Below are positions 1,906-26,858 of a stretch of 61,892 nt of DNA, one piece after another (the first letter of the stretch is position 1; each line of letters begins with the position of its first letter). The translations under genes and the position numbers were made by a program. The stretch is from Promethearchaeia archaeon (GTDB lineage Archaea; Asgardarchaeota; Lokiarchaeia; Sigyniarchaeales; SOKP01), in contig JAHQWH010000016.1 in NCBI GenBank assembly GCA_029856105.1, forward strand, positions 1 through 61,892, written 5' to 3'. Below the pieces are notes generated by a model. The model was not told the DNA's origin, did not search any database, and saw only the letters and a list, made by a program, of their open reading frames with translations.

Positions 1906-1984
1906 AAATATAATAATTAATCAAAAACATTTAAAAAATTTAACATCATATTTTTTATAAAGAAAATCTTATAGGTTTAATTAG

Positions 1985-3305: not shown

Positions 3306-3307
3306 CG

Positions 3308-6316: not shown

Positions 6317-6398
6317 TGTTATTTTATTTTTTTTTACTTATTGTAAGTTATATTTAAAAATATTTTTCTTTTAAATAGAATCGTTAGGAATAAAGTGT

Positions 6399-9461: not shown

Positions 9462-9696
9462 TTATTATCCCTCTATCACTTGTTCATAAAGTTTATTTGA
9501 AAAGATTAATTTTTAAACTTACTAAGTTCAAAATTAGTTTTTTGAAAGACTTAGAACGTAATAATAATACGGTTTCAATATACGAAAGATATTGGAATGA
9601 ATAAATTGGAAAAATTTAGCATTATTTTTATGTTTCTTAGCCTTTAAATGACTAGCTTTGAATTTTCAATTTAAATAAAAAATTTTGACGAGGAAA

Positions 9697-10255
9697 ATGA
9701 GTAAAACAAACAAAATCATTGTTAAGGCCCTTGTGACTGGAGGGAGAGAAAATTTATATTTTATAACTTTTCCCCTAATGCTTCAGGAGGGCCACCTATC
9801 GGCCCCGCTGTAGGTCCTACTGGCATAAAATGGAAATTGAATCGATTTCCTATGCAAACATCAAGGACGTAGTGGACGCCGTTAACGAAAGGACCATGCT
9901 TTTTAAGGGTTTAACGGTACCCATTAGAATCGAATGCGATCCTGCGACAAAACAGTTTGAGATATTCGTAGAGACGCCAAGTACAGCTTCACTACTTTTA
10001 AAAGAATTAGGAGCTGAAAAAGGGAGTTCGAATAGTTCTGAGGAGAAAATTGGAGATTTAACTCTTGAACAGGTAGTTAATGTTGCTACCGCTAAAAAGG
10101 ACATCTTTTTAGATAAAACCTTCAAAACTGCTGTAAAGACCGTAATTGGGACGGTTTTGTCAATTGGAGCCACAATAGAAGGTGAGGACCCGCGAGTAAT
10201 TCAGAAAAAGATTGAAAATGGAGAATATGCCGACATGATAAAGGGGGAGATGTAA
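9697..10255 (+). CDS. rpl11: 50S ribosomal protein uL11, split by two BHB introns; exons 9697-9746, 9779-9828 and 9858-10255
   Basis: Spliced product MSKTNKIIVKALVTGGSASGGPPIGPAVGPTGINIKDVVDAVNERT..., 165 aa; first gene of the L11-L1-L10-L12 operon. Confidence 0.93.
9747..9778 (+). other. putative mRNA intron 1 of rpl11 (32 nt, relaxed BHB)
   Basis: Central helix AGGG/CCCT, bulges AGA and AAT, inner stem GAAAA/TTTTC; removal restores frame. Confidence 0.88.
9829..9857 (+). other. putative mRNA intron 2 of rpl11 (29 nt, BHB)
   Basis: Central helix GCAT/ATGC, bulges AAA and AAA, inner stem GGAAAT/ATTTCC, exon stems TG/CA and GTCCT/AGGAC. Confidence 0.9.
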
Positions 10256-10258
10256 AAA

Positions 10259-10987
10259 ATGAAAATTGATGATAAGCTATTAAAAAAATCGTTAGATGCT
10301 GCAATTGAACATTCGACTATTAAAAAGGAAGGCTTTAAAGATAAAATCAGGAAATTTGACGAATCAATTGACCTCATTATGAATTTGAAAGACATTAACC
10401 TCAAAGATCCTAAACAGAGGATCGATAAGGAAATAATACTACCTAATAACATAATAACTAAAGATAGGCCTAGCATCTGCGTAATTGCATCAGACGAGAT
10501 ACTTCTTGAAGCTAAGAATCTTGGACTTGAAACGATGGATAAAGACGGTTTAATCAAACTAAATAACGAAGAAAAAAAGTATAAGAAAAAATTTGTAAAG
10601 AAATACAATTTCTTCGTAGTAGAAGACAAAATGATGCCAAATGTAGCTCGATATTTAGCGAGATTCCTTGGACCACTAGGTAAAATGCCGAAACCTTTCC
10701 CTAGCGGATATGGGATTATTTCCAATCCGAACGATTTAAACGTGGCAATTGAGAGATATTTAAAAGTTATTCGAATTCAATTAAAGAAGCAACCACTTAT
10801 TCAAGTGAAAGTAGGAAAAAAATCTATGGACAAGGATAAAATCTTTGAAAACATGAAAGCTATCGTTGAGTATATTGCTGATCAGATGCCTCATAAATAT
10901 AACAACATTAAATCTATATTTTTAAAAACTACAATGGGACATCCAATAAAAATTGATGAACAGTTTTTGAAGGGTATAGAGGTGTAA
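10259..10987 (+). CDS. rpl1: 50S ribosomal protein uL1
   Basis: RKFDESIDL, LGPLGKMPKP and KTTMG motifs; operon position. Confidence 0.95.
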   Translation: MKIDDKLLKKSLDAAIEHSTIKKEGFKDKIRKFDESIDLIMNLKDINLKDPKQRIDKEIILPNNIITKDRPSICVIASDEILLEAKNLGLETMDKDGLIKLNNEEKKYKKKFVKKYNFFVVEDKMMPNVARYLARFLGPLGKMPKPFPSGYGIISNPNDLNVAIERYLKVIRIQLKKQPLIQVKVGKKSMDKDKIFENMKAIVEYIADQMPHKYNNIKSIFLKTTMGHPIKIDEQFLKGIEV

Positions 10988-10991
10988 AAAA

Positions 10992-11957
10992 GTGATCAGA
11001 AAAAAAGAAATACATCAATGGAAATTGGATGAAGTCGTTCATTTAGTTGATTTGTTTAAAAACTATAAAACTGTTGCTGTAATAGAAGTTGCGAGATTAA
11101 ACGACAAACAAATTCAAGAGATGCGAAAAATCTTAAGAGGGAAAGCAGTAATAAGAATGTCAAAAAAGAAGCTTCAACTAAGAGCCGTAGAACAGTATAA
11201 AAACGAGTCTAAAAAAAAAAACTTAGAAGAACTCGCCGAAAAAATTCCAGGACAATCCGCATTATGTTTTATCAACATAGATATCTTTGAATTAATGAAA
11301 ATATTTAATGAAAATGAATGGATGGTCTCTGCTAAACCTAACGAGATAACACCAGTAGATATTTGGGTTACTGAGGGGGACACAGGATTGCCCACGGGAC
11401 AAGTTATCAGTGAATTGAACATGACGCTCCGACTTCCAACTAAAATCCAGAACGATACGATTTGGGTTAGAGAAGATACGCGAACGCACTCAGCGGGAGA
11501 TTACGTTGATGTAAAACAGGCAGCAGTCTTAAAGAAGTTAGGTGTAGCTCCAATTAAATCGCTTATTAAAATTTTTTACGCGTGGAGCGACGGTGAAATC
11601 ATTCCTGAGGAAATTCTATATATGGATATGGAACAATTCCAACAAGAGCTTGCATCTGCCTACTTCGGCGCACGAAGCTTAGCTTTAGAACTAGGTATTG
11701 TCGATAACGAAACGATTGAACCATTAATCCAAAAAGCACACCGAGAGGCTCTTGGAATCCTTTTTGAATTACCTGTTTATTTTGACGATATGAGGGATGA
11801 ATATATCCGAAAAGCCGTATCAAATGCTAGCACTATTAAGGCTATAGTACTTGGAGAAGACCTTCAGATTCCAACTAAGAAAGAAGAAGACAAAAAAGAA
11901 AAACCTGAAGAAGATGAGGAAGAAGAAGTTGGAATTGGAGGCTTATTTGGTAATTAA
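10992..11957 (+). CDS. rpl10: 50S ribosomal protein uL10/P0 (GTG start)
   Basis: QIQEMRKILRG and GDTGLPTG motifs; acidic tail ending GIGGLFG. Confidence 0.95.
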   Translation: MIRKKEIHQWKLDEVVHLVDLFKNYKTVAVIEVARLNDKQIQEMRKILRGKAVIRMSKKKLQLRAVEQYKNESKKKNLEELAEKIPGQSALCFINIDIFELMKIFNENEWMVSAKPNEITPVDIWVTEGDTGLPTGQVISELNMTLRLPTKIQNDTIWVREDTRTHSAGDYVDVKQAAVLKKLGVAPIKSLIKIFYAWSDGEIIPEEILYMDMEQFQQELASAYFGARSLALELGIVDNETIEPLIQKAHREALGILFELPVYFDDMRDEYIRKAVSNASTIKAIVLGEDLQIPTKKEEDKKEKPEEDEEEEVGIGGLFGN

Positions 11958-12031
11958 ATTAATTTTTTTAAATAAAATAAATAACCACAAATTTTAATTA
12001 TAATTGGATAAAAAAAAAGAGGTATAAAAAG

Positions 12032-12331
12032 ATGGAATCAATATATGCTGCGTTACTGCTTAATAAAGCAAATAAAAAGATTACAGAAGCAAACATCGAA
12101 AAAATCTTAAAAGCTGTAGATGTAACTGTTGACAAAGCTCAACTTACAAAAGTAGTAGCAGGGCTTAAGGAGGCTGACATTGAAACAATAATCAGTTCTG
12201 CCGCCGCAGCTCCAGTGATGGCTGCTCCGGTTGCTTCTTCAGCGTCTGCAAAAGCAGCCCCCAAGAAAAAGAAGGAAGAAAAGGAAGAAGAAGTTGAGGA
12301 AGAACCTACGGGAATTGGCTCGTTATTTTAA
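12032..12331 (+). CDS. rpl12: ribosomal stalk protein P1/P2 (archaeal L12)
   Basis: MESIYAALLL, Ala-rich hinge, acidic tail ending GIGSLF. Confidence 0.95.
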   Translation: MESIYAALLLNKANKKITEANIEKILKAVDVTVDKAQLTKVVAGLKEADIETIISSAAAAPVMAAPVASSASAKAAPKKKKEEKEEEVEEEPTGIGSLF

Positions 12332-12580
12332 ACGGGTTAAGACTCTTCAGCAAAACAAAGCAAAAATTATTTCAAAATTTTTTTAAATTATTTTTTTCTA
12401 CTATTTTTTAAACAATAATGTTTTCGAATTGTAAAGAAACAAAATATCTGCTTAAGTGAACTTATTAAATCAAAAAGTTTTTTTTAAATTCATTTTTTTT
12501 TAAGTTACATTTCTCAATTGAGAAACTTTTATTTTAATAAAAAAGGATTATAGTCACTAAAAGTTTTGTGTTGATAAACT

Positions 12581-14035
12581 ATGGCCGGAAAATTCCTCAA
12601 GTTCTTCTCTCCTTTTGTACGGGTAATGCCTGAACTCAAGCAGCCCCAGAGAGAGGTAAGTTTCAAAGAAAAGTTAATGTGGACAGGGCTTGCACTAATA
12701 ATCTATTTAATAATGTCAAATATTCCGCTTTATGGTGTAAATGCTGCCGCTACCACAGATTATTATTATTGGTTAAGAGTTATTTTAGCAAGTCAGAGAG
12801 GTACGCTTACAGAATTAGGTATAGGACCAATAGTAACGGCAGGATTAATAATGCAATTACTCTTAGGTTCCAAAATCATAAAAGTTGACATGAGCGATCC
12901 ATACGATAGGGCTATGTTTAGTGGTTCTCAAAAAGTATTCGCAATGTTTTTGACTGTGTTCAATATCGTCGCATATATAATCGGAGGTGCTTTTGGACCG
13001 TTAACCATTCAAAGTGGAACGTTTATCTTTTTGCAATTACTTTTTTCTGGAGTCATCATTATCTTACTTGATGAGTTACTACAAAAAGGTTGGGGAATTG
13101 GAAGCGGAGTCTCCTTGTTTATTGCTACTGGTGTTGCGGGACAAATATTTTGGAATTTATTTAGTTTTGTTGAAGTAAGTGTTAATGATGGTGCAAGAGG
13201 AATTGTTGTTGCTTTCTTTCAATCTTTGACGAATCCTAATATAAATACAGCTGAATTGTTTTGGAGGCACGACGCATTACCTTCTCTTTTTGGAGGAATT
13301 ACAACTTTAGCCATATTCCTAGTAGTTATTTGGTTCGAGTCTACTAGAGTCGAAATCCCGTTAGCCTATAAGGGATATAGAGGTTTTAAGGGGAAATATC
13401 CGATGAAGTTACTGTATGTTTCAAATATCCCCGTTATTTTAGTTAACGCCCTATACGCCAACTTTCTATTTTTTGGACAAATTATTGCTGGACCTAATTC
13501 TGGTTTTAGAAATGCCGATACTATATGGTTCCTTGATTTAATAGGCCAATTCGAAAATGTTTCAGGGGGAGGGGCTGGTGATTATTTAGTCCCCCTACCA
13601 GGGTGTTTACTTTATTACCTTACACCTCCTCAAGGATTGCTGCAATTAGTAGCTGACCCCTTTAGAGCAATAATATATCTAATAATATTTATATTTCTGT
13701 GTATCATGCTCGGCCGTGTTTGGGTCGACGTCTCAGGGCTTGCCCCGCGCGATATCGCCCAACAAATATTAGATTCTGGGATGCAAATTCCCGGATTTCG
13801 AAGTTCAGATAAAATCATTGAGAGAATATTAAAACGATACATCCCAACACTAATAATTTTAAACGGTATAATAATCGCAGTAATGAGTTTCTTCGCCGAT
13901 TCTCTAGGTGCATTGACTTCAGGCACGGGACTCTTGATAGCTATAGGCATCGTCCATCAATATAGCGAGTCTATCGCTAAGGAAATGGCAGCACAACAAT
14001 ATCCGGGCATGCGTGCGTTCTTAGGTATGGATTGA
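12581..14035 (+). CDS. secY: protein translocase SecY/Sec61alpha
   Basis: GTLTELGIGPIVTAG, GWGIGSGVSLFIA and YPMKLLYVSNIPVI motifs. Confidence 0.97.
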   Translation: MAGKFLKFFSPFVRVMPELKQPQREVSFKEKLMWTGLALIIYLIMSNIPLYGVNAAATTDYYYWLRVILASQRGTLTELGIGPIVTAGLIMQLLLGSKIIKVDMSDPYDRAMFSGSQKVFAMFLTVFNIVAYIIGGAFGPLTIQSGTFIFLQLLFSGVIIILLDELLQKGWGIGSGVSLFIATGVAGQIFWNLFSFVEVSVNDGARGIVVAFFQSLTNPNINTAELFWRHDALPSLFGGITTLAIFLVVIWFESTRVEIPLAYKGYRGFKGKYPMKLLYVSNIPVILVNALYANFLFFGQIIAGPNSGFRNADTIWFLDLIGQFENVSGGGAGDYLVPLPGCLLYYLTPPQGLLQLVADPFRAIIYLIIFIFLCIMLGRVWVDVSGLAPRDIAQQILDSGMQIPGFRSSDKIIERILKRYIPTLIILNGIIIAVMSFFADSLGALTSGTGLLIAIGIVHQYSESIAKEMAAQQYPGMRAFLGMD

Positions 14036-14132
14036 TGAGAATCTTATCCAAAAGAAATGGCAACATATTTTTTTAATAAAAAATTTTAATCTGAAAAGTT
14101 TAAAAAATTACTAAGATTACTTCATTATAATC

Positions 14133-14807
14133 ATGCTTTTATTAATTGCTCAAGAATCAAATGCTTTTTTAGATTGGATTAGCTTCCCGCCTGGGTCCAT
14201 GATATTTATATTATTAATGGCTTCTATTACATCATTAATTAGTGTTGGACTAACCAGATGGTTAATTGATACTGATGAAATTAATCGAAAACAAGTTATA
14301 TCAAAGGCTCACGACGAAGAAAAAGCGAAAATTATTGAATTAGCTGAAACGGACCCAGAAAAATATAACAAGTTAAGAAAAAGGTGGGAACGATTGGATT
14401 CGATGTTAAAACAATCACAGCAGAAAATGGCTTTGAGACGTATGTTGCCCAGTTGCATAACATTCGTTCCAATGATAGTCCTATTTACATTAGTAAGAGG
14501 AATATTCGGGAACAACCCCGTTGCGTTGTCTCCAATGAATGCTAACGATGTAGCGCTCATAGGGAACATGATGGCGGCTACTACGGGTTCTACAGTATAT
14601 TCATGGACCGCCCTTGTGTATGGCGTTGGTAGAACTCTTGGATTAGAAGCTGGTTGGATAAATTTTACTGCTTGGTATTTTCTATGTAGCTTTGGTGTGA
14701 ACACGCTTGTTCAGAGAATTTTTAAATTACAAACACAAGCATCGGGAGGAATGGGGCAGATGATGGGTGGTGGGAAAGCTAAATCTTTGGAATTTCCTAA
14801 AGTTTAA
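14133..14807 (+). CDS. DUF106 / EMC3-TMCO1 (Oxa1 superfamily) membrane insertase
   Basis: TM, coiled coil, TM architecture with WYFLCS motif; follows secY. Confidence 0.85.
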   Translation: MLLLIAQESNAFLDWISFPPGSMIFILLMASITSLISVGLTRWLIDTDEINRKQVISKAHDEEKAKIIELAETDPEKYNKLRKRWERLDSMLKQSQQKMALRRMLPSCITFVPMIVLFTLVRGIFGNNPVALSPMNANDVALIGNMMAATTGSTVYSWTALVYGVGRTLGLEAGWINFTAWYFLCSFGVNTLVQRIFKLQTQASGGMGQMMGGGKAKSLEFPKV

Positions 14808-14864
14808 ATTAATAAAAGATAATTTTTGATTCTATTACTTTCCTTATTTCTATAAGTAATAAAG

Positions 14865-14967
14865 CGCAGACAGAGGGATTCGAACCCTCGGATGCTTTCA
14901 CACACCGGCTTTCTGGGACCGTTTTTCCGCTCCAAGCCGGCGCCGTACCAGGCTAGGCAATGTCTGC
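14865..14967 (-). tRNA. tRNA-Ser(GGA) with a 19-nt canonical 37/38 intron (14911-14929)
   Basis: Acceptor GCAGACA/TGTCTGC, anticodon stem CCGGC/GCCGG, long variable arm, TTCGAAT T-loop, discriminator G. Confidence 0.9.
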
Positions 14968-15048
14968 AAAAAAAAATTAGCGCTAACGGCGCACAATGGC
15001 GACGCTCAGCAATATTTCTACTTGTATGGATTTTTAGAAGTTAAATAA

Positions 15049-15321
15049 TTATTTTGTAGGAATGGAAACTGTCTCTTTCATTTTTTTTTCTAATTTTGCT
15101 TTTTTAATAGCAGTTTCAACGTTCTCATGTGAAGCACCTTTTTTGATTTCAATCGTGTCTGCTATCGGTTCTATATGTCGGTAATTAACCCTTCTTCGGC
15201 GAATTCCCAAACCATCAACTAAAATATAATTTTTATCGATGATATCGACGACAACGCAATATTTTCCCGCTTCCCTTCCCATAGTTTTGACGCAAACGCG
15301 TCCTATGTCATATACACTCAT
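15049..15321 (-). CDS. rpl14e: 50S ribosomal protein eL14
   Basis: IGRVCVKTMGREAGKYCVVVDIID. Confidence 0.95.
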   Translation of the reverse strand: MSVYDIGRVCVKTMGREAGKYCVVVDIIDKNYILVDGLGIRRRRVNYRHIEPIADTIEIKKGASHENVETAIKKAKLEKKMKETVSIPTK

Positions 15322-15457
15322 TTAATTCGTCACCAAATTAATTTTAATAAATTTATCATCACTGAATTTTTTAATTTTCAGAAAAGATAAACGATCTATC
15401 GTAAATTAAGGAATAATTTCAATTATAAATTTTTTATGATTTTTACGAAGAAAAAGT

Positions 15458-16009
15458 TTAACTAAAATTTTTTAACTCAGATAGGATTTTCTCTAACACT
15501 TCTTCAATAGAAAAATTTTCTGTGTTAATAATTAAATCAAAAAGTTCGTTAATCGAATTCTTATCGCTTAAATCAATGTCATAGAGTTTTTTAAAGCGTT
15601 CCAATTCAGATTTTTCCCTTAAAGTTGTTTCTTTTAATTTCTCTTCGAAAGATGTTTTTTCTCTCTCTGACATTCTTTTAACACGTAATTCTAACGGACA
15701 AGTTAGGTGTATTCTAAAATCTGCTATGGATTTGAGAATATATCCGCTTAATTGGCTATCAATAATAATATTACCCTTCTTTGCCATGTTAACGACTTTA
15801 TTATCTAATTCATTGTCAATATCAGGATGAACTTCGACATAATTCGTATATTCTTCTAAAGACATGTTCTTTTCTTTTGCAAGATCTCGAAACGCTTGTC
15901 CCGTTGAATAGTAGACTATCCCGAGGCGTTCTGCCAGTAATCTAGCAATCGTAGATTTTCCCGTCCCATGGAGCCCAGATATCGCAATTATCATTTTTAC
16001 ATTTCTCAA
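15458..16009 (-). CDS. cmk: archaeal cytidylate kinase
   Basis: P-loop GLHGTGKST; lies between eL34 and eL14. Confidence 0.9.
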   Translation of the reverse strand: MRNVKMIIAISGLHGTGKSTIARLLAERLGIVYYSTGQAFRDLAKEKNMSLEEYTNYVEVHPDIDNELDNKVVNMAKKGNIIIDSQLSGYILKSIADFRIHLTCPLELRVKRMSEREKTSFEEKLKETTLREKSELERFKKLYDIDLSDKNSINELFDLIINTENFSIEEVLEKILSELKNFS

Positions 16010-16079
16010 AATTGAATTTAGCTATTAAAAGAAATTAAAACCAGAAAATATTTAATATTTTTGAAATTCCAAGATCGGA

Positions 16080-16355
16080 TTAACTTTCTGTTTGCCACAC
16101 AGATTCTTTTAGTAAAGTTTGCAAACATTTAGCACAGTACCTTCCGCTTTCAGGTCGATTTGCTCTTCTGGAAACCTTATTTGTTTTTTTCATTTTCGCT
16201 GGTCTTAATCTTGGTACAGCTTGAAGAGTTTTTTTGCAGATGGCACATTGAGCCTTACTAGGCTTTTTTCTCCAATAGTGAGAAACAGTCTGAGTTCCAG
16301 GAGTTTTCAGCTTTTTTCGTTTTTGAGCCTTAGATCTAAGTCCCGGTCTTGGCAA
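16080..16355 (-). CDS. rpl34e: 50S ribosomal protein eL34 (TTG start)
   Basis: PRPGLRS..KTPG, CAIC..CAKC zinc finger. Confidence 0.93.
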   Translation of the reverse strand: MPRPGLRSKAQKRKKLKTPGTQTVSHYWRKKPSKAQCAICKKTLQAVPRLRPAKMKKTNKVSRRANRPESGRYCAKCLQTLLKESVWQTES

Positions 16356-16449
16356 GATGCATTACCTTTAGTTTTCCAATTTATTCAATTTGAAGTGTTT
16401 ATTGATATGGTGTTAAAGCATGAAAACTTAATTAATTTTATTATTTTAG

Positions 16450-17076
16450 CTATTTCCCAAGATTCAATTTTTTTGCAAAATTAAGGTACAATACATACAA
16501 ATCTTCTGCTATGGAATCTCTATAATTTTTATTATTAACAATTTTTTCTTCGTTTTGTAAGACTTCTTCAAAGATTTTTTCCAATTTTATCTTGTCTAAT
16601 TCTAAACCGGGAAACCTATCAAAATTTTTCTTCAAATCTTTAAAAAGTCCAAAAGTTAGTTCGTTATTATCAAAACCATCTAATTTTAGCGCGTCTAATA
16701 GCGTTATAAAAGAAGCCGTAATTTCCGAACTAATCCCTGGAATTTCAAGAATAGAAGAACTAAGTGATTCCGAGAATTGGCTAGTAGAAAAGTTAAGAGA
16801 AGAGATTTTGTTGATAATGTCAATAGCTTTATAATAATCTTCAGTAAAATTCATGTGATTCAATAATTTCGAAAGGACTATATTGTGCTTATTTAACGAT
16901 ATGTTAAGCTCCAATAAATCGTTCGTAGCACTCTTGATCGATCTTTGAAAAAATATTTCTTTTAAAATACCTTTTTGATATTTTAGATTTAAATTAAGTA
17001 TTGTATTTACTATTGCAAATATTTCAGATTCAAGCTCAGGTTTATTTTCAATGGAGTTTTTTTTGCGATTTGTCAT
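16450..17076 (-). CDS. Vps28-like ESCRT-I subunit
   Basis: EIFAIVNT..L..KYQKG N-terminal segment and ITASFITLLDALKL, resembling the Vps28 C-terminal signature. Confidence 0.7.
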   Translation of the reverse strand: MTNRKKNSIENKPELESEIFAIVNTILNLNLKYQKGILKEIFFQRSIKSATNDLLELNISLNKHNIVLSKLLNHMNFTEDYYKAIDIINKISSLNFSTSQFSESLSSSILEIPGISSEITASFITLLDALKLDGFDNNELTFGLFKDLKKNFDRFPGLELDKIKLEKIFEEVLQNEEKIVNNKNYRDSIAEDLYVLYLNFAKKLNLGK

Positions 17077-17095
17077 TTCTCTAAAGCTAGTAATG

Positions 17096-18013
17096 CTATA
17101 TTATAAATGTAGGGCGTAAGAAATAATAAAATACTGCAATTATTATCCCAATTGCTAATGACGAGATGAACACGCGAAAAGTGGATGAGTTAGATAATTC
17201 TCTAATAGCAAGGGTTATTAATATAGGAACCCATACTGCAATCGTTAAGGCGTCAATAAGATGAAGCACCGTCCAAGTTGGGGACGCAAACATAGGATTG
17301 AGTAAATTTGGATCAAACGGAAAGAGACTAGGAAAAATAATATATGGGAAACCAATTAAAATTATTAAAATCTCAATACTATTTATTAATAAATAGGGGG
17401 CAAAAGCGCACAACATCATCTTAAATTTTGAAGCTTGTTGTTGGTGCAAAGTTCCTCCTTTATAGATGCTGAAAGGACTCATCTCAGCTTGACTGTATTT
17501 TTCTTTTCCTTCTTTTTTTTCTCCAAAACGCGCTTCTAACCTTTCTGAAAAATCGACAGCAACATTTGCGCCTTTAGTAAAAAACCATATCAATATGAAA
17601 CCAAAAATAAAATAAAACATAAATCCAAATGCAAAAAAGGCTATAAAAGCGGCTAAATCTATAAAAAACCTACCAAGGCTAAAAGGCGGTATCGTTTGAA
17701 TATTAATATGTGAAAAAAAGGCTAAACCCATGAGTCCATAAATGAGCGAATTAAATAGTAAAATTTTATATCCTGGGGCGCCTTTCCTCTTATGGTTTAT
17801 GTTCCAAAAAGCCCTATTTGGCTTAGTAAACAACCAAAGTATTGTAATATACCAAGGGGTAGGAGAAATGAATTCTTCCTCAATACGCTTAAATATAGAA
17901 AAATTTTCTATCCTTTCACTTCTAAGTCGTTTACCACAAAAAGCACACACGAACGAGTCGGTTCGATTATAGTTGCCACATCTAGGACATCTATTAGATA
18001 TGTTTGTTGACAT
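17096..18013 (-). CDS. Zn-ribbon plus Yip1-like multi-pass membrane protein
   Basis: CPRC..CAFC; LFTKPxxAF motif followed by five TM segments. Confidence 0.65.
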   Translation of the reverse strand: MSTNISNRCPRCGNYNRTDSFVCAFCGKRLRSERIENFSIFKRIEEEFISPTPWYITILWLFTKPNRAFWNINHKRKGAPGYKILLFNSLIYGLMGLAFFSHINIQTIPPFSLGRFFIDLAAFIAFFAFGFMFYFIFGFILIWFFTKGANVAVDFSERLEARFGEKKEGKEKYSQAEMSPFSIYKGGTLHQQQASKFKMMLCAFAPYLLINSIEILIILIGFPYIIFPSLFPFDPNLLNPMFASPTWTVLHLIDALTIAVWVPILITLAIRELSNSSTFRVFISSLAIGIIIAVFYYFLRPTFII

Positions 18014-18177
18014 GGTTATTTAGCACTTACTAATTTTTATATTTATCATATAATTGTAATCATTTAAAAATTTCTTTAAAGATAGCATTTTTTTTGAATT
18101 TAAAGGCACTAAAAAGTTAATATTAACTTAAAAATTATAGAATTTCGTAAAAGTATAAATACAGAATACAAATCTAA

Positions 18178-19245: not shown

Positions 19246-20396
19246 AATCTATCTCCTTCATATAATGATTTTATACGTTGGATACCACCGTAACCTTCTA
19301 TTAAATTTACGACTTCCTTAGGCACTAATACCGTCCAATTTCTATTTTCTTTGCTTATTAATTTTCTTACATTTGTTGCGTTATATTTTTTCTTAAAAAT
19401 TTCTAATTTCTCTCCTACAATAAACCCCTTATTTTGAAAAAGTTGTCGAACCCAATCGCTATTGGAATATATCGTATCAAAATCGCCTACTATTGAAATA
19501 ACATGGTCCACCCATTTGTTTGCGTTAAAAATATCAGGAATTGCAAATATTTCGAATCTATCTGGGATAATATTTCTCACTTTTAAGGCAGAATTTATGA
19601 AACTTACTCTTTCTTCACTAGTAAAGGGATCTGTTTTAGTTTTAGATAATTGAGAACTTCCTATTCCTATTTTAATTTTTTTATAGCTTTTAAATATTTT
19701 ATTTAGCACATAAATATGACCGTGATGTAATGGTTGAAACCTTCCAATAAATAACGCAGTATTTCTTTTCGAACTTGTTAATTTAGCTTTATTATTGTTG
19801 ACCTTAAATTTTATAACTAAGTCCGTATTAAGTAGTTTTTTCCATATCGTTTTTGTATAATCAATTGTTTTTTCATTCTGTAGGAGTTTTGTCAAATCAG
19901 ATTGAGTGTAGAAACGACTTTCGCTGATTTGTAATTCGTTTGGATTGGGTTTTAGCTGCACATTATTTTTTACTAGTCCTAAAAATACATAGGCAATTTC
20001 AGTTGTATTCTTATTTTCCTTTGTATTTAAATCGTAAAATAATAGTTTGTCAATCGCTATCGGAGGTATACCAAACTCCTCTTCAAGCTCTCTCTTTGCT
20101 TCCTCTTCAATATCTCTCAGAGTTAAATTTCTTTTATATATAACGTGCCCCGAGGCTGAGTCTGTAAAATATTCGGGAAAAGTTTTTTTATTTTTACCGC
20201 GTTTTTGAACAAGGTAGAGTATTTTTTTGTCAGGAGTAATAGAAACTATAAAAACGCGTGTTATTAGATGACTAATTTTCTTTTCGTGAGCCTCTTCCCT
20301 TTCCAAGGGGAAGATGTATTTTGAAATTTGTCCTGAGTGCAAAAATCTAATATTATTCTCCGAGATACATGCCAAGATTTCTTTTTCCATATTCAA
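19242..20396 (-). CDS. fusion of an N-terminal Nudix (IDI-like) domain and a C-terminal NMN adenylyltransferase
   Basis: SGHV..AKRELEEEFGI Nudix box, then IGRFQPLHHGH and DPFTSEER. Confidence 0.85.
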   Translation of the reverse strand: MNMEKEILACISENNIRFLHSGQISKYIFPLEREEAHEKKISHLITRVFIVSITPDKKILYLVQKRGKNKKTFPEYFTDSASGHVIYKRNLTLRDIEEEAKRELEEEFGIPPIAIDKLLFYDLNTKENKNTTEIAYVFLGLVKNNVQLKPNPNELQISESRFYTQSDLTKLLQNEKTIDYTKTIWKKLLNTDLVIKFKVNNNKAKLTSSKRNTALFIGRFQPLHHGHIYVLNKIFKSYKKIKIGIGSSQLSKTKTDPFTSEERVSFINSALKVRNIIPDRFEIFAIPDIFNANKWVDHVISIVGDFDTIYSNSDWVRQLFQNKGFIVGEKLEIFKKKYNATNVRKLISKENRNWTVLVPKEVVNLIEGYGGIQRIKSLYEGDRF

Positions 20397-20404
20397 AGCC
20401 TTTT

Positions 20405-21238
20405 TTAAAAACTAAATAAAATTTCGTCTCCCAATTCAATTCCTATTTCTTTAGCTGCGTTCCCTAGATTTATCGAAACTTCGAGATAACCGGATGAACC
20501 TTTAACGAATAATATTGATTTTGGTGGCACTGATTCAAAATGAGATGTAAATTTCCCACGATATTCTTGATTTTTATATAACATGACAATTTCTTTACCG
20601 TGCTCTAAAACAATTGAAGTTCCCAATATTCTATTTTCTTGTAAGGGGATGTTTGTTGTTAAATTACCAAAAGTGTCTATATATTGAATAATACAAGTTA
20701 TTTTTTTATTTTTCGGAGAAATTTCGTACTTGAAAGGGTATTTCACAAATTTTGACGGATTAAAAGAAGGACCAAAATTATTCAATGGGACATTTTTAGT
20801 AATGTAGGCTCCGATTGGTGCCATTATGTCTCTTCCATGAAATATTTTTGAGATTGGTTTAAAGAAATAATTTTGATTTTCAACGGTTACACATTCAACA
20901 ATATCGTCTGGAGAAAATACATTACTAAATATACCATTATCAGGGCCGACAAAAAATTGATTATTAACGTTTTTAATTGCTACAATCTTTCGGGAACTAC
21001 CTACTCCCGGATCGACTACAACGATAAAAACAGTATCTTCAGGATAATATTTATGCGTTGTTTTAACAATATAGGAGGTTTCTATAATTGAGAATGGAGC
21101 GATATTATGAGAAATATCAATAATTTTTACTTTAGGATTAATTTTTAAGATTACTCCTTTCATACTAGCTACATAATGGTGCCCTTTCGCTCCAAAATCT
21201 GTAACTAATCCAATAATCTTTTTATCCAATTTTACCAT
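20405..21238 (-). CDS. SAM hydroxide adenosyltransferase (chlorinase/fluorinase family)
   Basis: TDFG, VVDPGVGS, GPDNG, FHGRDI and IDTFGN motifs. Confidence 0.92.
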   Translation of the reverse strand: MVKLDKKIIGLVTDFGAKGHHYVASMKGVILKINPKVKIIDISHNIAPFSIIETSYIVKTTHKYYPEDTVFIVVVDPGVGSSRKIVAIKNVNNQFFVGPDNGIFSNVFSPDDIVECVTVENQNYFFKPISKIFHGRDIMAPIGAYITKNVPLNNFGPSFNPSKFVKYPFKYEISPKNKKITCIIQYIDTFGNLTTNIPLQENRILGTSIVLEHGKEIVMLYKNQEYRGKFTSHFESVPPKSILFVKGSSGYLEVSINLGNAAKEIGIELGDEILFSF

Positions 21239-21273
21239 TTTATAGAAATTTTAGTGAAGAAATTGAAAAACGA

Positions 21274-22179
21274 TTAAATCATTTTTTTTTTATATTCCTC
21301 ATCAACTTTATAAAATTCCTCAAGAGCTTTTGATTTCAAACGATACTCTTCTTCTTTATTAAAATCAACTAATTTCTTAGAAAGTTCGCTAGCTTTTTTA
21401 TAAGAAATATATGCTGAATGAAAATTTTCGTTCCTGAGGAAATTTCTTGCCTCTTGAACAAGTTTATCCCTTGCTTTTGATACATCTGGAACATCTTCCG
21501 AAAAAGAAGCTTTCTCCTTTAAAGATTCAGCAATGTCAATAACATATAATTCTTCAGCAATTTCAGCAGCTCTTTTGAAGAATTTCGCGGCTTTTTCGTA
21601 TTCTAAAACCTTCAAGGCTTCATCCGCCGTATTATAATACTCCGAGACTTTTTCGTGTTCTCCGTCTTCAATTTTTTTTAATAATTCTTGAGCAATTTTT
21701 CTTTCTTGTTTCCCACCACTCAACATAAATTTAGTTATAGTAATAACGCTATCTTTTAAAGCATCTGGTTTTAGGATGTCGATTAATGGTTCGAGGTGTT
21801 CTAAATAAATATCTTTTAAGAGCGGTTCAAATTCTTCTGAACTCATTTTTAATAAGCTTAACCCTAAAACTTCAATTGCTTCGGCCCCTTCCTTAAGAGC
21901 AGATCTGAATTTCTCAGGTTTATCGTTTTCATTTAACAATAATCCAATAATAATCCCAGAAGCCTTTCGAGCTAATTTTCCTTTAAATTTATAAACATAA
22001 GAAAAAATTTGATTTTCTTTTAATTTCAACAAGTTGTACTCGTCTTTAGAATGATCTAAATTAAGCCTTAGAAATAAATCGTTTGTGATTTCAAAATCGG
22101 ATTTAGACTTATGATAGTAACCTAATACGCTGTAATCGGCGTCTAAAGGTAATAATATTACAAAACTTCCTGTTGGCAT
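21274..22179 (-). CDS. hypothetical protein, longin-like N-terminus and helical-repeat C-terminus
   Basis: Beta/alpha N-terminal half; AAKFFKRAAEIA and AYISYKKASELS repeats. Confidence 0.55.
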   Translation of the reverse strand: MPTGSFVILLPLDADYSVLGYYHKSKSDFEITNDLFLRLNLDHSKDEYNLLKLKENQIFSYVYKFKGKLARKASGIIIGLLLNENDKPEKFRSALKEGAEAIEVLGLSLLKMSSEEFEPLLKDIYLEHLEPLIDILKPDALKDSVITITKFMLSGGKQERKIAQELLKKIEDGEHEKVSEYYNTADEALKVLEYEKAAKFFKRAAEIAEELYVIDIAESLKEKASFSEDVPDVSKARDKLVQEARNFLRNENFHSAYISYKKASELSKKLVDFNKEEEYRLKSKALEEFYKVDEEYKKKMI

Positions 22180-22248
22180 TTTTAAAAACTCCTTTTTCTC
22201 TTTGTTGAGGATATAAATAAAGTTTTATCATAAAAAAAACTATATACT

Positions 22249-22689
22249 TTACGGTTCTTTAATGCTAATAATCCTATTAGTTTCTTCTCTTATAGATTGA
22301 ATAACATTTAATAATTGAGCGTAATATAAGTTATTAGAAACCGCTTTAGCAGCTTGTCTTATTATTTCAATAGCTTTCTTTTCTTCTTCAGTTATAGATT
22401 CAATTGATTTTTTTTCATATAGTTCTTTTATCTTAGCGTTAAAATCATCTGAAATCTCTTGCATGTTTTCACTAGATTTCATGCGAAATTGTTTAAGTAC
22501 TTCTACTATAAGTCGGATATTCTCGCTAACAGAAATTGTTTCTTCAGAAAATTTTTGTGACATATTCTGAATGGCGGTGCTCATTTGAGTGATTTGAGCG
22601 ATCGTACCATCTAGCGAAGTTGTAATCTGATTTATTTTAGTAATCATGTCATCCAATAATCTTTCTGTCATTTTTTTATCAACTCTCAA
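22249..22689 (-). CDS. coiled-coil hypothetical protein
   Basis: Heptad-patterned ORF. Confidence 0.75.
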   Translation of the reverse strand: MRVDKKMTERLLDDMITKINQITTSLDGTIAQITQMSTAIQNMSQKFSEETISVSENIRLIVEVLKQFRMKSSENMQEISDDFNAKIKELYEKKSIESITEEEKKAIEIIRQAAKAVSNNLYYAQLLNVIQSIREETNRIISIKEP

Positions 22690-22711
22690 TGATTATATTA
22701 CATTATTTATA

Positions 22712-23116
22712 CTATACATTATTTTGAGATATTTGTTTCATGGATTTTACTGAACTAATTGCTTCAGAAAGAAGTAAATTAACTGTATCTTGGTTAAGTA
22801 CTTCTCCAGACAATTTTGAGAATTCTTCTAAATTTTTTACGAGCGTTGCAAGAGCATCTAATCCTAATCCTTCCTGAATTTTCATCAATTCAAGTTTTGT
22901 AGTCTCTCCAATATCTTTTAAAACGTCAATATGTTTGCCCTTCGTTACTTCAATTTCCTCTGAAAATTCTTTTAACTTTTCATCTAGATTGGAGATTTTT
23001 TGGTCAATATTTTGATTTAACCCGTCTAAAGAAGTTTTCAATCCTTGAATTGCTTTACCAAGTTGGGCTATTCGCCCGTAAATTGAATTCAGAAGGTCAG
23101 TAAGCATTTCGGCCAC
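22712..23116 (-). CDS. coiled-coil hypothetical protein
   Basis: Heptad-patterned ORF, GTG start. Confidence 0.75.
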   Translation of the reverse strand: MAEMLTDLLNSIYGRIAQLGKAIQGLKTSLDGLNQNIDQKISNLDEKLKEFSEEIEVTKGKHIDVLKDIGETTKLELMKIQEGLGLDALATLVKNLEEFSKLSGEVLNQDTVNLLLSEAISSVKSMKQISQNNV

Positions 23117-23293
23117 TAATTTTTACACCCATTTGATTTTTTTTTTTAATATTATGTATAATATCATTTTTTGATTTTATAAATATAACAGAGCACACCA
23201 ATAAAAAAATTTTTATTATTTTGAGCTTTTTGACTTTATAATATAAGGAAAATAAAAAAATTATTTAAAAAAACAGTATATTAATTAAGCACA

Positions 23294-23443
23294 GGGCCAT
23301 TAGCTCAGCCTGGTTAACGGCAATTAGAGCAAGCTTGGCCAACAAGCGCAGGTCTTATAATTGACTCACGATCAGACAAAATTTATAAAATTGATCGTGA
23401 CAGTAGATGCCTGAGAGCCGGGGTTCAAATCCCCGATGGCCCA
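23294..23443 (+). tRNA. tRNA-Ile(TAT) with two non-canonical introns (23317-23343 and 23361-23408)
   Basis: Acceptor GGGCCAT/ATGGCCC, T arm CGGGG-TTCAAAT-CCCCG, spliced anticodon arm CAGGT-CT-TAT-AA-GCCTG, discriminator A. Confidence 0.8.
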
Positions 23444-23476
23444 CTCTTTTCCTTTTTTCAATATCTCAAAAGCAAA

Positions 23477-24332
23477 TTATTTGATATCTCCCGTTGCTTT
23501 CAAACCCTTAATTAACAAAGCAATTAATAATTCTAATCCTCGAATATTATCTTTAGTATGAACTTTAGAATCTGGTGTAAATTTTTCATGATATTTCAAG
23601 GTAATATACTTTAAAGAGGGGTTCTCATTGTACCATTTTAATATTGATTCTTTCGTATCAAAATGAAAAACTTCCATTTTATTTAAAGTTTCAAAAAAAT
23701 CGTCGTCTTTCCATACTCCAAAATGAGCTAAACAAACGGAATTAAACTCGCTTTTTAAACTTCTTAGCTTCTCAAAAGTTTTTAATATTTCAGATTCGAT
23801 AAAATCGGGCGGAACAAACTCGGGGATGGCAGTTTCTGGATCAAATCTATCAATTATTGCGTCTCCAACGAAGATATTTTTGTTTTTACGTTCTAATATT
23901 GCTATAGAATCCTGAGTATGACCAAAAAAGTTCATTATCTCGAGTTTTAAACCGTTAACATCAATTATATCTCCTTCTTTCAATGGAGTAACATTATCTA
24001 TAGGGTTCACATTGTATCCAAAGTCTTTATTTAACTTATCAGGATTTTTCAAGTTATCTATTGCTCTTTCGGAAGCTAATAAATTTTCCTACCCCTTGAA
24101 CATGATCAAAATGAGAATGAGTCAAAATTATTTTATGAATGGGGAACAACCCGAATTCTTTAATTTTTTTTACAAATCTCCTAGCCATTAAATCTGAAGG
24201 AGTATCAATCATTACTCGCATATTTTCATTTTCAATTATATAAATTGCGAGATTTCCATTCATTCTATACAGCTCGGCATCAATTAAATAAGTGTTTTCA
24301 TTAAATTTTCCATCAGAATTGATAAAGACCAT
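23477..24332 (-). pseudogene. metallo-beta-lactamase-fold hydrolase, frameshifted near 24085
   Basis: THSHFDH in the upstream part; GHT, FVGDA and AHFG in the downstream frame, which already reads LLASERAIDNLKNP across the junction. Confidence 0.8.
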
Positions 24333-24472
24333 TTAAGATTCCTCCAATTTACTAAAAATTCATGATCGTATAAATTAAATTTTAGTTAAAAGATAATTTA
24401 AATGTTATATTTTTTGAAAAAGAACAAGACTTACATAAACCAAATAAGTTTTACTAATTATAGAGCCATAGG

Positions 24473-25156
24473 CTATTTATCTAAATTAATAGATATTAAA
24501 TTCAGAACCCACTTTTTAATTTGCATTATATTTTTAAGTAAGCCCGCGACAAAACTATCTGGAAAAGGTTTTTCTTGGTCGAAAGTTTGAACTGTGCTCA
24601 TCCACTTATTTAAAGCTAATTGAACCAAACTGGCTCCTTCTGCCTCCATGAACATAGGTACAACTGCCGCGCTTTCCCGGGCATCTCCAATGGCAAAATA
24701 GACTTTTCGATTAATATCTTTTAACATAACGAAGTTTACGCATTCATCTAGTTTCCTTTCAACTAGAATAGTTTTAAGGATGTCAGTTTTCATTGAACTA
24801 TCTTTCGTTAAAAATTTTTCTTTTCTATTCTTTAGTTTAGGCTGAACACTGGTGATTAATTTATCCCCACTACTTCCTTCAGGGAAGTATTTTGTAATTC
24901 TCAAAGAATTCTCTAGAGTTTCGATCTTTATAAATTTCTTAGTGTTTGAATATAGTATAGCCTGAGAACCGCCTTTACTTTCAGAGGTAGATAGTTTTAT
25001 AAAAATATTTCGCATTGCAACAGTATTACTCGTATGATACGCTAATTCAAATAATTCTCGTAAAGTTACTGGTTCATTGTTTTCTTCGATTTGTTTAAAA
25101 GGCCATTGAGTTGATATGACATTATTAAATTGATTTAAGAGTAAATTTTCTACCAT
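24473..25156 (-). CDS. hypothetical protein
   Basis: 227-aa ORF; no family recognised. Confidence 0.75.
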   Translation of the reverse strand: MVENLLLNQFNNVISTQWPFKQIEENNEPVTLRELFELAYHTSNTVAMRNIFIKLSTSESKGGSQAILYSNTKKFIKIETLENSLRITKYFPEGSSGDKLITSVQPKLKNRKEKFLTKDSSMKTDILKTILVERKLDECVNFVMLKDINRKVYFAIGDARESAAVVPMFMEAEGASLVQLALNKWMSTVQTFDQEKPFPDSFVAGLLKNIMQIKKWVLNLISINLDK

Positions 25157-25301
25157 CGTTAATAACCCTAAATATTTAGTATAATATTGTTCTTCTAGTT
25201 TTTATTATTTAGTATTGAATAATTATTATGTCATCGTAATTTATTATTAAAAGCGGTATTATATCTTTCCTAACTTAAATTGAAATAATATTAGAAAATT
25301 A

Positions 25302-26669
25302 TTATTTTTGAGTTATTTGATCGTAAGCTTTTTCAAACCTCTCAACAGCAGATATAATATCTTCTGATGTTGCCCCAATAGCAGCGTTCAATACGATATA
25401 TGGCGTTATATATTCAGTACTACATGTCCCAAATATGCTTTCTTCGGGATTATATACTCGTGGACCAGTGACTCTTAAGTTATATAAAGCACCTCCTAAA
25501 GCGAATAACTGTTCTTTTTTCAAGTTATTTAAAGATACGGCAACAGCTACTGGATTAAACACATCGAGAATTTTTTCGTTGATTTTTTCGGCAACTCCTT
25601 TTAATTTACTTTCTAGTAATTTTCGATTATGTTGTTGTTCTTTTAAGAGTTTTTGGTACCCTTCTATTCCTAAAGATAACATTGATATAAGAAAGTTCAC
25701 AATTGGAGCCGCAGAAGCACGACCTGCGTAAGCTTGGCTGATTTTGGTTATAATTTCTTCGCTTGGAGATGCGATTATAGCTCCACCAACAGGAGTAAGA
25801 ACATTTTTATCAGTTGATTGAATAATTGCATCCACTTTTCCAGCGTCGATACCAACTCGGATTAATTTCATCCATTCCGGACTTTGTACACCATAGGCGT
25901 TAATAACTATATGAACCAGATCGTTTTTTTTAGCAAACTTGCTAATCTCTTTAATATTGTCGTGTTCTCGAGGAGGAAAAAAGCTTGTTAAAGATATTAC
26001 AGCAAAACAATCACTATCTAAACTAGCTTCAATGTCTTCGATCGGTATTCTAACTGCATCCCCAAAAATTTTCCCTTCAACGGTTTTTATTCTCATTCCC
26101 ATTAAATTAATTGCTTTTATTAGAGATTTGTGGTCAATTTGAGGAACAATTACAGTTCTTTTATTTATTAATTCTTTTTTATTCCAATTAGGTTTGAGAG
26201 CCCCTAGACATAAAGCTAAAGACATACCAGTGCATTGAGGGACGACTATTGCTTTCTTTATGTTTAACATTCCAAATTTTCTAAGGAAATTAAGAGCTAA
26301 ATAATTACTGAGTTCATACATTATAGAACCTCCAGGAGCTTTTGGTTGAGGGGCTGTTAAGAATCCACTTCGTCCTATCCCGTGACAAAATCCACTTGAA
26401 GATTTTAAGTGTAAACTCGATGCAATTCTTGCTTCACGCTCTCCTACTCGAGAAGCTTTATCATCTTTGTCTGTATCCATATTTGAAAGCATTTGAAGCA
26501 AAAATTCGATTTGACCTTCACTCCAAGGCTTTTGAGGGACAATTCTTTGCTCAAAAAGCGTTTTTATTGGTTTTAAGAAATTATTTAAAACTAACTGCCC
26601 TCTATCTAACATATTTTGTGGAATTGATGTGCTCTTAAAATAATCAATAATTTTATTAAAGTCAAACAT
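25302..26669 (-). CDS. spcS: O-phosphoseryl-tRNA(Sec) selenium transferase SepSecS
   Basis: GEREARI, HGIGRSG..APQPKAPG, QSTDKN (PLP lysine) and YAGRAS; directly downstream of tRNA-Sec. Confidence 0.95.
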   Translation of the reverse strand: MFDFNKIIDYFKSTSIPQNMLDRGQLVLNNFLKPIKTLFEQRIVPQKPWSEGQIEFLLQMLSNMDTDKDDKASRVGEREARIASSLHLKSSSGFCHGIGRSGFLTAPQPKAPGGSIMYELSNYLALNFLRKFGMLNIKKAIVVPQCTGMSLALCLGALKPNWNKKELINKRTVIVPQIDHKSLIKAINLMGMRIKTVEGKIFGDAVRIPIEDIEASLDSDCFAVISLTSFFPPREHDNIKEISKFAKKNDLVHIVINAYGVQSPEWMKLIRVGIDAGKVDAIIQSTDKNVLTPVGGAIIASPSEEIITKISQAYAGRASAAPIVNFLISMLSLGIEGYQKLLKEQQHNRKLLESKLKGVAEKINEKILDVFNPVAVAVSLNNLKKEQLFALGGALYNLRVTGPRVYNPEESIFGTCSTEYITPYIVLNAAIGATSEDIISAVERFEKAYDQITQK

Positions 26670-26702
26670 AAACTTCCCTTGAAATTACTTAAATTTTGAG
26701 TT

Positions 26703-26858
26703 TGGCGGCCCCCAGGGGGATTTTCTCGAAAAGAACAAATCTCTTTCCATATCGAACCCCTATCCCTCCGCAGGATAACTGGGTTTGAAGCCCAGCGTCA
26801 GAGACCACTTATCGTATGAGATCGAAATGATCAAATCAAATTCCGACCGCCGGGGGCC
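26703..26858 (-). tRNA. selC: tRNA-Sec(TCA), 9/4 fold, with a 33-nt D-arm intron (26809-26841) and a 30-nt T-loop intron (26721-26750)
   Basis: 9-bp acceptor GGCCCCCGG/CTGGGGGCC, anticodon arm GCTGGG-CT-TCA-AA-CCCAGT, long variable arm, 4-bp T stem, encoded GCCA end. Confidence 0.93.

Follow-up and report, generated by a model that had tools for sequence, protein, structure and literature searches.

Seven bulge-helix-bulge (BHB) introns of 19–48 nt interrupt the ribosomal protein gene rpl11, encoding uL11, and three tRNA genes (tRNA-Ser, tRNA-Ile and tRNA-Sec) within ~17 kb (positions 9697–26858) of a Lokiarchaeial contig. The contig (GenBank JAHQWH010000016.1, or C16; 61,892 nt, hereafter the window) belongs to a metagenome bin, G000, of 3.66 Mb with 92% completeness, 6% contamination and 32% G+C. 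All genomes compared here are metagenome bins; the two closest relatives, 90–93% identical to G000, are labelled G017 and G005, and L-numbers denote ortholog loci. At the level of sequence, all seven inserts were confirmed as genuine archaeal BHB introns with borders set to the base, and their places and sizes agree with the initial annotation, which had listed two inserts in rpl11, one in tRNA-Ser, two in tRNA-Ile and two in tRNA-Sec. We consider it likely (a probability of about 0.8) that these are BHB introns spliced by the endonuclease EndA and the ligase RtcB, that they reflect a state of the whole family, and that the rpl11 introns belong to cassettes reshuffled among strains, probably by recombination.

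Read without splicing, the rpl11 frame opening with the ATG at 9697 (MSKTNKIIVKALVTGG) reaches a stop codon ending at 9813, after 38 codons, and the remaining conserved N-terminus of uL11 (ASGGPPIGPAVGPTGI, then NIKDVV...) is split over two other frames. In the list of open reading frames (ORFs), uL11 appears only in an N-terminally truncated form (9830–10255). We resolved the gene into three exons on the forward strand. Based on the reading frame and ortholog alignment, exon 1 (9697..9746) carries the start region named above and the first 2 nt of a Ser codon; exon 2 (9779..9828) ends with the second conserved segment and one further nucleotide; and exon 3 (9858..10255) covers the C-terminal part of Ribosomal_L11_N together with Ribosomal_L11 (Pfam PF03946 and PF00298). 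In intron A (9747..9778, 32 nt), the bulges AG|A and AA|T flank the central helix AGGG/CCCT, and the inner helix is GAAAA/TTTTC; in intron C (9829..9857, 29 nt), both bulges are AA|A, the central helix is GCAT/ATGC and the inner hairpin GGAAAT..ATTTCC. Both intron lengths equal 2 modulo 3, and the spliced coding sequence (CDS) is a stop-free 498 nt encoding 165 aa. Removal of both introns is thus predicted to restore the frame of an essential ribosomal protein.

The predicted spliced junctions are GGGAG|TGCTTC for intron A and GGCATAA|ACATCAAG for intron C. Orthologs were first compared in 24 congeners and 16 genomes from other families of the order, and those of many congeners, as well as all loci of other families that were read (L021–L030), are intron-less with a continuous ...TGGSASGGPPIGPAVGPTGINIKD... 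sequence. The rpl11 borders are confirmed by these intron-less orthologs, which run straight through at the predicted junctions: relative to them, the window carries 32 more bases between GG-AG and T-GCT (GG-S-ASGGPP in the protein) and 29 more between GGC-ATA-A and AC-ATC (GIN-IKD). Introns at site A were found in 11 other alleles, in which the first central pair varies in a compensatory manner (A-T, T-A or T.G), and homologs of intron C likewise occur in 11 other alleles, some with GCAT/GTGC as the central helix. The initial annotation had claimed BHB introns in an mRNA as well as in tRNAs, and rpl11 bears this out.

A single rule, by which the cut follows the second base of either 3-nt bulge beside the 4-bp central helix, was applied to both ends of every insert and gave functional products throughout, namely the 165-aa uL11 and three tRNAs recognised by ARAGORN. 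All four central pairs are formed in six of the seven introns (rpl11-A, rpl11-C, tRNA-Ser, tRNA-Ile 21/22, tRNA-Ile 38/39 and the tRNA-Sec D stem), and two 3-nt bulges on opposite strands surround a 4-bp helix throughout, except for the bulge of tRNA-Ile 38/39 and the pairing of tRNA-Sec 59/60. The inserts do not belong to group I or group II introns, as no Rfam intron family matched in the window and lengths of 19–48 nt compare with a ribozyme core of hundreds of nucleotides. In the raw sequence of the full window ARAGORN called no tRNA, and Rfam reported only tRNA-Ser (14865–14967, minus strand) above threshold, with tRNA-Sec (RF01852) below it; in the syntenic loci of relatives, too, tRNA-Ser alone was recovered by Rfam. 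Once the five segments within tRNAs are excised, Ser(gga), Ile(tat) and SeC(tca) are all called by ARAGORN. A T-loop motif scan of the window added no tRNA to these three, so that the claim of every tRNA being interrupted holds for the detectable tRNAs. Only one of the five tRNA introns occupies the canonical position 37/38, as had been noted.

That canonical intron (14911..14929, minus strand, 19 nt) lies in tRNA-Ser(GGA) (14865..14967, minus strand), a type II tRNA of 84 nt after splicing (RF00005, 42.5 bits), and shows a strict hBHBh' motif with the central helix UUGG/CCAG and eight outer pairs. tRNA-Ile(UAU) (23294..23443, plus strand) consists of exons 23294–23316, 23344–23360 and 23409–23443, which join to a canonical 75-nt tRNA with the anticodon UAU; its borders were set by comparison with ~30 orthologs from two genera, each carrying two to four introns with conserved helices. 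Intron 1 (23317..23343, 27 nt) sits at position 21/22, between the D loop and the D stem, with the central helix TGGT/GCCA, for which the sister genus has TGGT/GTCA between outer pairs GCT/AGC and inner pairs CAAG/CTTG. The 3' strand of the D stem is AAGC, pairing perfectly with GCTT in many orthologs. Intron 2 (23361..23408, 48 nt) sits at position 38/39 with the central helix UUAU(33–36)/GUAG, including two G.U pairs; the orthologs follow UUAU/RUAR, in which two purine positions swap between A and G while pairing with U is kept. Additional introns occur in relatives (loci L111, L112, L150, L157, L163 and L164), namely one of 31 nt in the D loop after AG and one of ~30 nt that separates the variable region from the T stem. 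The former is present in G017 and G005 and absent from the window.

Three other readings of tRNA-Ile were tried and rejected. Reading GAGC as the D-stem 3' strand, with inserts of 10 and 17 nt, is refuted by comparison with the orthologs, by which the strand is AAGC and the insert a single 27-nt intron. Placing the anticodon intron at 37/38 leaves no central helix in that register, whereas 38/39 gives UUAU/RUAR. As for a tandem duplication giving rise to the 21/22 intron, the repeat GCTTGGTTAAC / GCTTGGTCAAC is explained by a near-palindromic exon, and we draw nothing from it. The UAU anticodon is conserved in two genera; the tRNA-Ile type usual in archaea carries CAU (with agmatidine).

tRNA-Sec(UCA) (26706..26858, minus strand) scored 28 bits against RF01852 when unspliced. 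Its true 5' end, GGCCCCCGG at 26858, pairs with CUGGGGGCC to give a 9-bp acceptor stem, and the spliced 90-nt molecule is of the archaeal 9/4 form, with 7 bp in the D stem and a UGGU loop. Intron 1 (26809..26841, minus strand, 33 nt) splits the D stem in its 5' strand, with the bulges GA|A and AA|G flanking the central helix GUCG/CGAU, and intron 2 (26721..26750, minus strand, 30 nt) interrupts the T loop at 59/60, with the T stem serving as the outer helix and an inner helix of 9 bp. Intron-less orthologs show GGTTGGAGTGGTC at the D-stem point, within ...CGGTTGGAGTGGTCTCTGAC..., and GGGGTTCGATTCCCC at the T-loop point. In the family, six tRNA-Sec orthologs carry no intron, three carry the D-stem intron only, and the window and ~12 others carry both. 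The CCA end is DNA-encoded (26705–26703, minus strand), and the gene lies directly upstream of, and on the same strand as, the gene for SepSecS (25302..26669, minus strand; PF05889, E 7e-115). As tRNA-Sec and SepSecS are adjacent, the genome has a selenocysteine system.

The machinery for removing such introns is encoded in G000. Two EndA (tRNA_int_endo) paralogs of 200 and 201 aa were found on contigs C107 and C12, only one of which, by reading of the sequences, keeps the His, and RtcB was identified with an E-value of 9e-168. The (alpha-beta)2 type of EndA is linked to splicing of the cbf5 mRNA. The EndA pair of G000 appears to match this type, with a broad substrate range predicted, and Asgard EndA has been assigned to the (alpha-beta)2 type with a loop conferring broad specificity (Kaneta et al., PMC5829648). 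In the mechanism we propose, each precursor RNA would fold into a 4-bp helix between two bulges on opposite strands, EndA would cut after the second base of each bulge, and RtcB would join the exons, by which the tRNA exons would rebuild a cloverleaf and the rpl11 mRNA would regain its frame. Insertion would be limited to sites at which the exon supplies part of the helix, such as the rpl11 segment encoding GGxxSGGPPIGPAVGPTG and the stems of tRNAs.

If the inserts instead stay in the RNA, rpl11 would be a pseudogene or a mis-assembly, or would be read by ribosomal frameshifting or hopping, and the ‘tRNAs’ would be decayed copies. Such decay has a precedent close by, as a neighbouring gene for an MBL-fold hydrolase (23477–24332, minus strand) truly is disrupted, having lost 32 nt in comparison with two close relatives. 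We nevertheless regard this alternative as very improbable, as (i) rpl11 matches the genome only once, within the conserved rpl11-rpl1-rpl10-rpl12 operon, and its exons are under protein-level constraint, (ii) these same inserts turn up in numerous independent assemblies, in every case with borders that fit the BHB cut rule to the base, (iii) splicing yields canonical tRNAs, among them the 9/4 tRNA-Sec with its 7-bp D stem next to SepSecS, and (iv) the deletion in the MBL-fold gene lacks BHB geometry, showing that the scan separates the two cases.

The introns of rpl11 are polymorphic among close relatives. In a set of ~52 distinct alleles (at least 68% protein identity) and 17 further loci of known genus, we recognised ~35 introns at four sites spanning 55 nt, and every interrupted allele, from genera g1, g16 and g32, was resolved by the one cut rule. 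On the maximum-likelihood tree of the adjacent 1450 nt for the 52 alleles, site A (after GG) has 11 carriers and requires at least nine changes, site B (PPI|GP) five carriers and at least five changes, site D (PAV|GP) six carriers and at least two changes, and site C (GI|N) 11 carriers and at least nine changes. For sites A and D, carriers come from more than one of the three genera. The central helices co-vary (AGGG/CCCT, TGGG/CCCA and TGGG/CCCG; GCAT/ATGC and GCAT/GTGC). rpl11 introns were seen only within the GTDB family of the window, and none was found in 10 genomes of other families. The segment GGxxSGGPPIGPAVGPTG corresponds to the most G+C-rich and self-complementary stretch of rpl11, in which GGACC...GGTCC gives seven outer pairs for site D, and it is because this segment can supply the exon half of the motif that rpl11 is a hot spot. 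The sister genus g12 may likewise have an intron near site C or D, as the exon-3 frame is only 139–150 aa long in at least 18 of its 32 sampled genomes; of its loci, four with frames of 171–172 aa were read, and these contain no rpl11 intron.

Turnover at this locus is evident between very similar strains. Loci L042 (introns A and C) and L041 (intron B) differ by ~3.5% over the adjacent 1450 nt, and their intron sets are wholly different. The clade of the window itself includes some alleles with A and C, one with B and C and three without introns. Some introns are 97–100% identical between genomes in which the adjacent coding DNA is only 77–79% identical, and a sharp mosaic breakpoint lies ~35–60 nt into exon 3: L109 shares 96–98% identity with the window across the first 250 nt from the 5' end, both introns included, and ~75% thereafter, while the same locus is 90–98% identical to its sister L012 downstream and 32–68% upstream. 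Intron-bearing alleles also have their own synonymous codons in the flanks (GACTGGAGGGAG...TGCTTCAGGAGGGCC). Flanks of the intron type without an intron were found neither among ~50 loci nor in metagenome contigs, in which an exact search for the spliced rpl11-A junction gave no match. An rpl11 intron and its co-adapted flanks would thus form an allele-specific cassette, and presence and absence would be reshuffled among close strains by homologous recombination of such cassettes. The movement of intron-plus-flank units between strains by homologous recombination is the simplest and most likely explanation, and recombination, rather than gain or loss in place, probably underlies the patchiness.

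We conclude that the 17-kb cluster is a sample of a genome- and family-wide state and no local burst, in that most tRNA genes of the family are interrupted and several of its mRNAs contain BHB introns too. The proliferation of introns claimed by the initial annotation thus survives as high turnover, seen in rpl11 (four sites), tRNA-Ile (two to four introns) and tRNA-Sec (none, one or two), and is not local to the 17 kb. It had also been reasoned that intron spread would be doubtful if the genome held no further mRNA introns and the tRNA intron density were typical of relatives. Further mRNA introns do exist. elf1 (contig C191) contains a 32-nt intron with a strict hBHBh' motif (CCAA/TTGG, five outer and five inner pairs), whose removal restores the zinc knuckle CPNCG, and a histone gene (contig C136, about 28800–28830) contains a 29-nt intron with the central helix GCGC/GTGC, after removal of which the C-terminus aligns gap-free to two intact histone paralogs. 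The density of tRNA introns does appear typical of relatives by an Rfam proxy. Some 46 tRNAs are expected per genome, and 20 are detectable by Rfam in G000, comprising seven of 71–74 nt, two of 85 nt and eleven of at least 95 nt; the undetected ones are presumably too broken for Rfam. By the same crude proxy, 16–31 tRNAs are detectable in all but one congener (the outlier has 51), 23–33 in the sister family and 11–39 in other Asgard archaea. As the count of G000 falls within the range of its kin, the interruption of tRNAs is typical and not special to this genome.

Several points weigh against our interpretation. The strict hBHBh' motif is found only in tRNA-Ser; the remaining introns of the window have two to four outer pairs or interrupted inner helices, and the outer helix of rpl11 intron A is weak, with no outer pair beside the 3' bulge. 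The 3' bulge of tRNA-Ile 38/39 is irregular and leaves C32 unpaired, and the central helix of tRNA-Sec 59/60 has one mismatch, forming three of the four pairs. With one strict motif among seven, cleavage depends on a broad-specificity EndA, whose range is predicted, and we infer the actual splicing of the seven introns from their sequences. Relaxed BHB forms have been described for broad-specificity EndA (PMC5829648). The tree of the adjacent 1450 nt is a locus tree and not a species tree, and, given that all genomes are bins, assembly of co-occurring strains into chimeras could account for the mosaics.

A genome-wide scan of coding sequences, part of the check that had been proposed, adds a further point of this kind. 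Combining BHB motifs with the joining of open frames gave no excess over decoys (3' junction shifted by 1 or 2 nt) at any stringency, nor did it once codon usage was scored and a ‘no start codon’ filter applied; the strict candidates that ranked highest turned out to be gene junctions, for instance the start of an L14e-like gene at 15321. Restricting the scan to the hairpin C-NNNTC-G (described below) gave a mild excess (0.48 vs 0.35–0.46 for five control loops), with no frame-restoring excess. The scan is nevertheless uninformative rather than negative, as it missed elf1, histone and rpl11 themselves because the exons are short and gene junctions swamp the signal; the elf1 and histone introns were confirmed individually.

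How the introns arose is a separate question. The initial annotation proposed that intron gain, for instance by reverse splicing into abundant, structured RNAs, has spread from tRNAs into mRNA. As an active process, this would have excised introns reverse-splice, be copied back into DNA and go on spreading in the lineage today. We consider this unlikely. It would fit the crowding of four sites into 55 nt of a single, highly expressed mRNA, the several unrelated sequence families at site A, and the confinement of rpl11 introns to one family. Nevertheless, no second genomic copy of any of the seven introns was found, the best non-self matches being equal to shuffled controls, which is in keeping with the remark that the introns share architecture but not sequence. 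No RVT_1 reverse transcriptase was detected in the 92%-complete genome, no intron-less allele with intron-type flanks was met, and a census of Asgard tRNA introns found no route by copying, mobile elements or reverse transcription (bioRxiv 10.64898/2026.10.13.758758). The patchiness is better explained by exchange of introns with their flanks than by reverse splicing.

A possible trace of common ancestry between mRNA and tRNA introns came from comparing all introns with one another, as had also been suggested. The outcome is mostly chance, with only three of 45 between-site comparisons scoring above simple shuffles. A short inner hairpin with a C-G-closed pentaloop NNNTC (...ATC NNNTC GAT...) is nevertheless shared by rpl11 introns B, C and D, some of rpl11 A, the tRNA-Sec D-stem intron and the histone intron. 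Examples are GAAATC-ACCTC-GATTT (rpl11, L042) vs GAAATC-AACTC-GATTTC (tRNA-Sec, L186), and AATC-GGTTC-GATT vs GATC-GGTTC-GATC; the loci concerned also include L004 and L189. Structure-preserving shuffles reached the observed similarity in two of 300 trials for rpl11-C vs the tRNA-Sec D-stem intron and in none of 300 for rpl11-D vs the tRNA-Sec D-stem intron or for rpl11-C vs rpl11-B, while rpl11-B vs the tRNA-Sec D-stem intron and rpl11-C vs rpl11-D showed no excess over such shuffles. The hairpin may reflect common descent, which would favour spread between tRNAs and mRNAs, or equally a selected loop, and we treat it as a lead and not as a result. Of the proposed spread, the occurrence of introns in both classes of RNA therefore stands, and its direction hangs on this weak hairpin motif.

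An explanation without ongoing gain deserves consideration as well: one ancestral entry each into rpl11 and the tRNAs, followed by precise losses and by sorting and recombination of alleles. The occupation of sites A and D in more than one genus, the homology of same-site introns across species with compensatory changes in their stems, and the mosaic alleles, which show that exchange occurs, are all as this scenario would have them. It has to contend with at least four mutually unalignable sequence families at site A, with an intron in L044/L213 shifted by one base (GAGG/CCTC), suggesting more than one insertion, and with the fact that each intron is lacking in the majority of the family's sampled genomes and in every outgroup sampled. 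Taken together, we find old single entries doubtful, albeit a real possibility. It is attractive to speculate, with the odds rather against it, that ~30-nt hairpin introns are or recently were mobile between tRNA genes and mRNAs of this Lokiarchaeial Asgard lineage, settling where the host RNA completes a BHB and spreading as cassettes by homologous recombination without a reverse transcriptase.

The sequence around these genes holds a few further features. The ~9.3 kb directly upstream of rpl11 (188–9505) are missing at the syntenic place in G017 and G005, which join window positions 1–187 (1–173 in G005) to about 9473–9506. This part contains mostly ORFs unmatched in Pfam and a 1041-aa protein with a prenyltransferase alpha-alpha toroid domain, and it may be an inserted element in the window or a deletion in the two relatives. 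Positions 12581–14807 (plus strand) encode SecY and, after it, a protein whose domain is EMC3/TMCO1-like (PF01956); this family is familiar chiefly from the machinery for membrane insertion in eukaryotes. The MBL-fold (Lactamase_B) gene mentioned above is split into ORFs of 92 and 191 aa. We tried this split as an eighth intron and rejected it, as G017 and G005 keep 32 more coding bases after 24081 with the frame intact and the borders show no BHB; judged from these alignments, it is a frameshifting deletion, i.e., a pseudogene or an assembly error.

BHB introns in archaeal mRNAs are rare in the literature. A 2023 review lists two cases, cbf5 and HVO_1309, and expects more (PMC10485636). The intron of the cbf5 pre-mRNA is known from Desulfurococcales and Sulfolobales (Watanabe 2002; Yoshinari 2006; Yokobori 2009, PMC2738675). 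It resembles those of rpl11 in being a small CDS intron with a relaxed BHB motif, found in hosts with heteromeric (alpha-beta)2 EndA and gained or lost among relatives. In contrast, rpl11 encodes uL11, has two introns in the window and four sites within 55 nt, is polymorphic among near-identical strains, and belongs to Asgard archaea and not to Crenarchaeota; splicing of cbf5 was shown by experiment, whereas the introns of rpl11 are known from sequence. In Haloferax volcanii, the BHB of the HVO_1309 mRNA is cut by the tRNA splicing endonuclease and the spliced RNA is the main product (PMC7714728). The rpl11 mRNA is predicted to resemble it in being cut at a BHB by this enzyme, but HVO_1309 is a single gene of a euryarchaeon with an alpha2-type enzyme, and neither polymorphism across a family nor a hot spot of several sites has been described for it.

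Interrupted tRNAs of Asgard archaea have been published for Atabeyarchaeia and for Jordiarchaeia/Freyarchaeia (PMC11291895; bioRxiv 10.64898/2026.10.13.758758). As in G000, most tRNAs there are interrupted, many of them by several introns at non-canonical positions (in the D arm especially), gains are repeated, and two EndA paralogs are present. These papers differ from the present case in dealing with tRNAs only. The 2026 preprint among them places Asgard tRNA introns at BHB-capable sites and reports no general route of arrival; a search of its text gave no mRNA, one mention of protein-coding genes (in locus matching) and no Lokiarchaeia by name (bioRxiv 10.64898/2026.10.13.758758). Thermoproteales likewise combine many non-canonical BHB introns with a broad-specificity heteromeric EndA (Sugahara 2008; Fujishima 2010, both as cited in later work). 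According to the preprint, ~28% of their introns fall into families of at least 80% identity across different tRNAs (bioRxiv 10.64898/2026.10.13.758758). Such transposing introns appear as similar copies at different sites, whereas the introns of the window have no paralog in G000 and share only the short hairpin motif. For Lokiarchaeum, the passage of Mariotti 2016 that we consulted (PMC4989117) describes a 31-nt T-loop intron in tRNA-Sec, the same gene and the same place as our 30-nt intron; the additional 33-nt D-stem intron of the window is unmentioned in that passage, and the family here varies among zero, one and two introns. The literature searched holds no report of BHB introns in protein genes of Asgard archaea, and two introns in one essential mRNA, a hot spot of four sites and strain-level polymorphism with mosaic alleles are undescribed in it.

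These findings carry a warning for annotation, as ARAGORN misses all three tRNAs of the window, Rfam passes tRNA-Ser only, and the ORF list truncates uL11. For the biology of the organism, an essential Asgard ribosomal protein gene would need two EndA-type splicing events. The rpl11 introns are a live polymorphism, which makes the origin and spread of introns in protein genes testable in the lineage nearest to eukaryotes. If hairpin introns are truly mobile in this family, the closest prokaryotic relatives of eukaryotes would show active, protein-enzyme-dependent gain of mRNA introns, and no essential archaeal gene before uL11 would have been known to depend on two splicing events.

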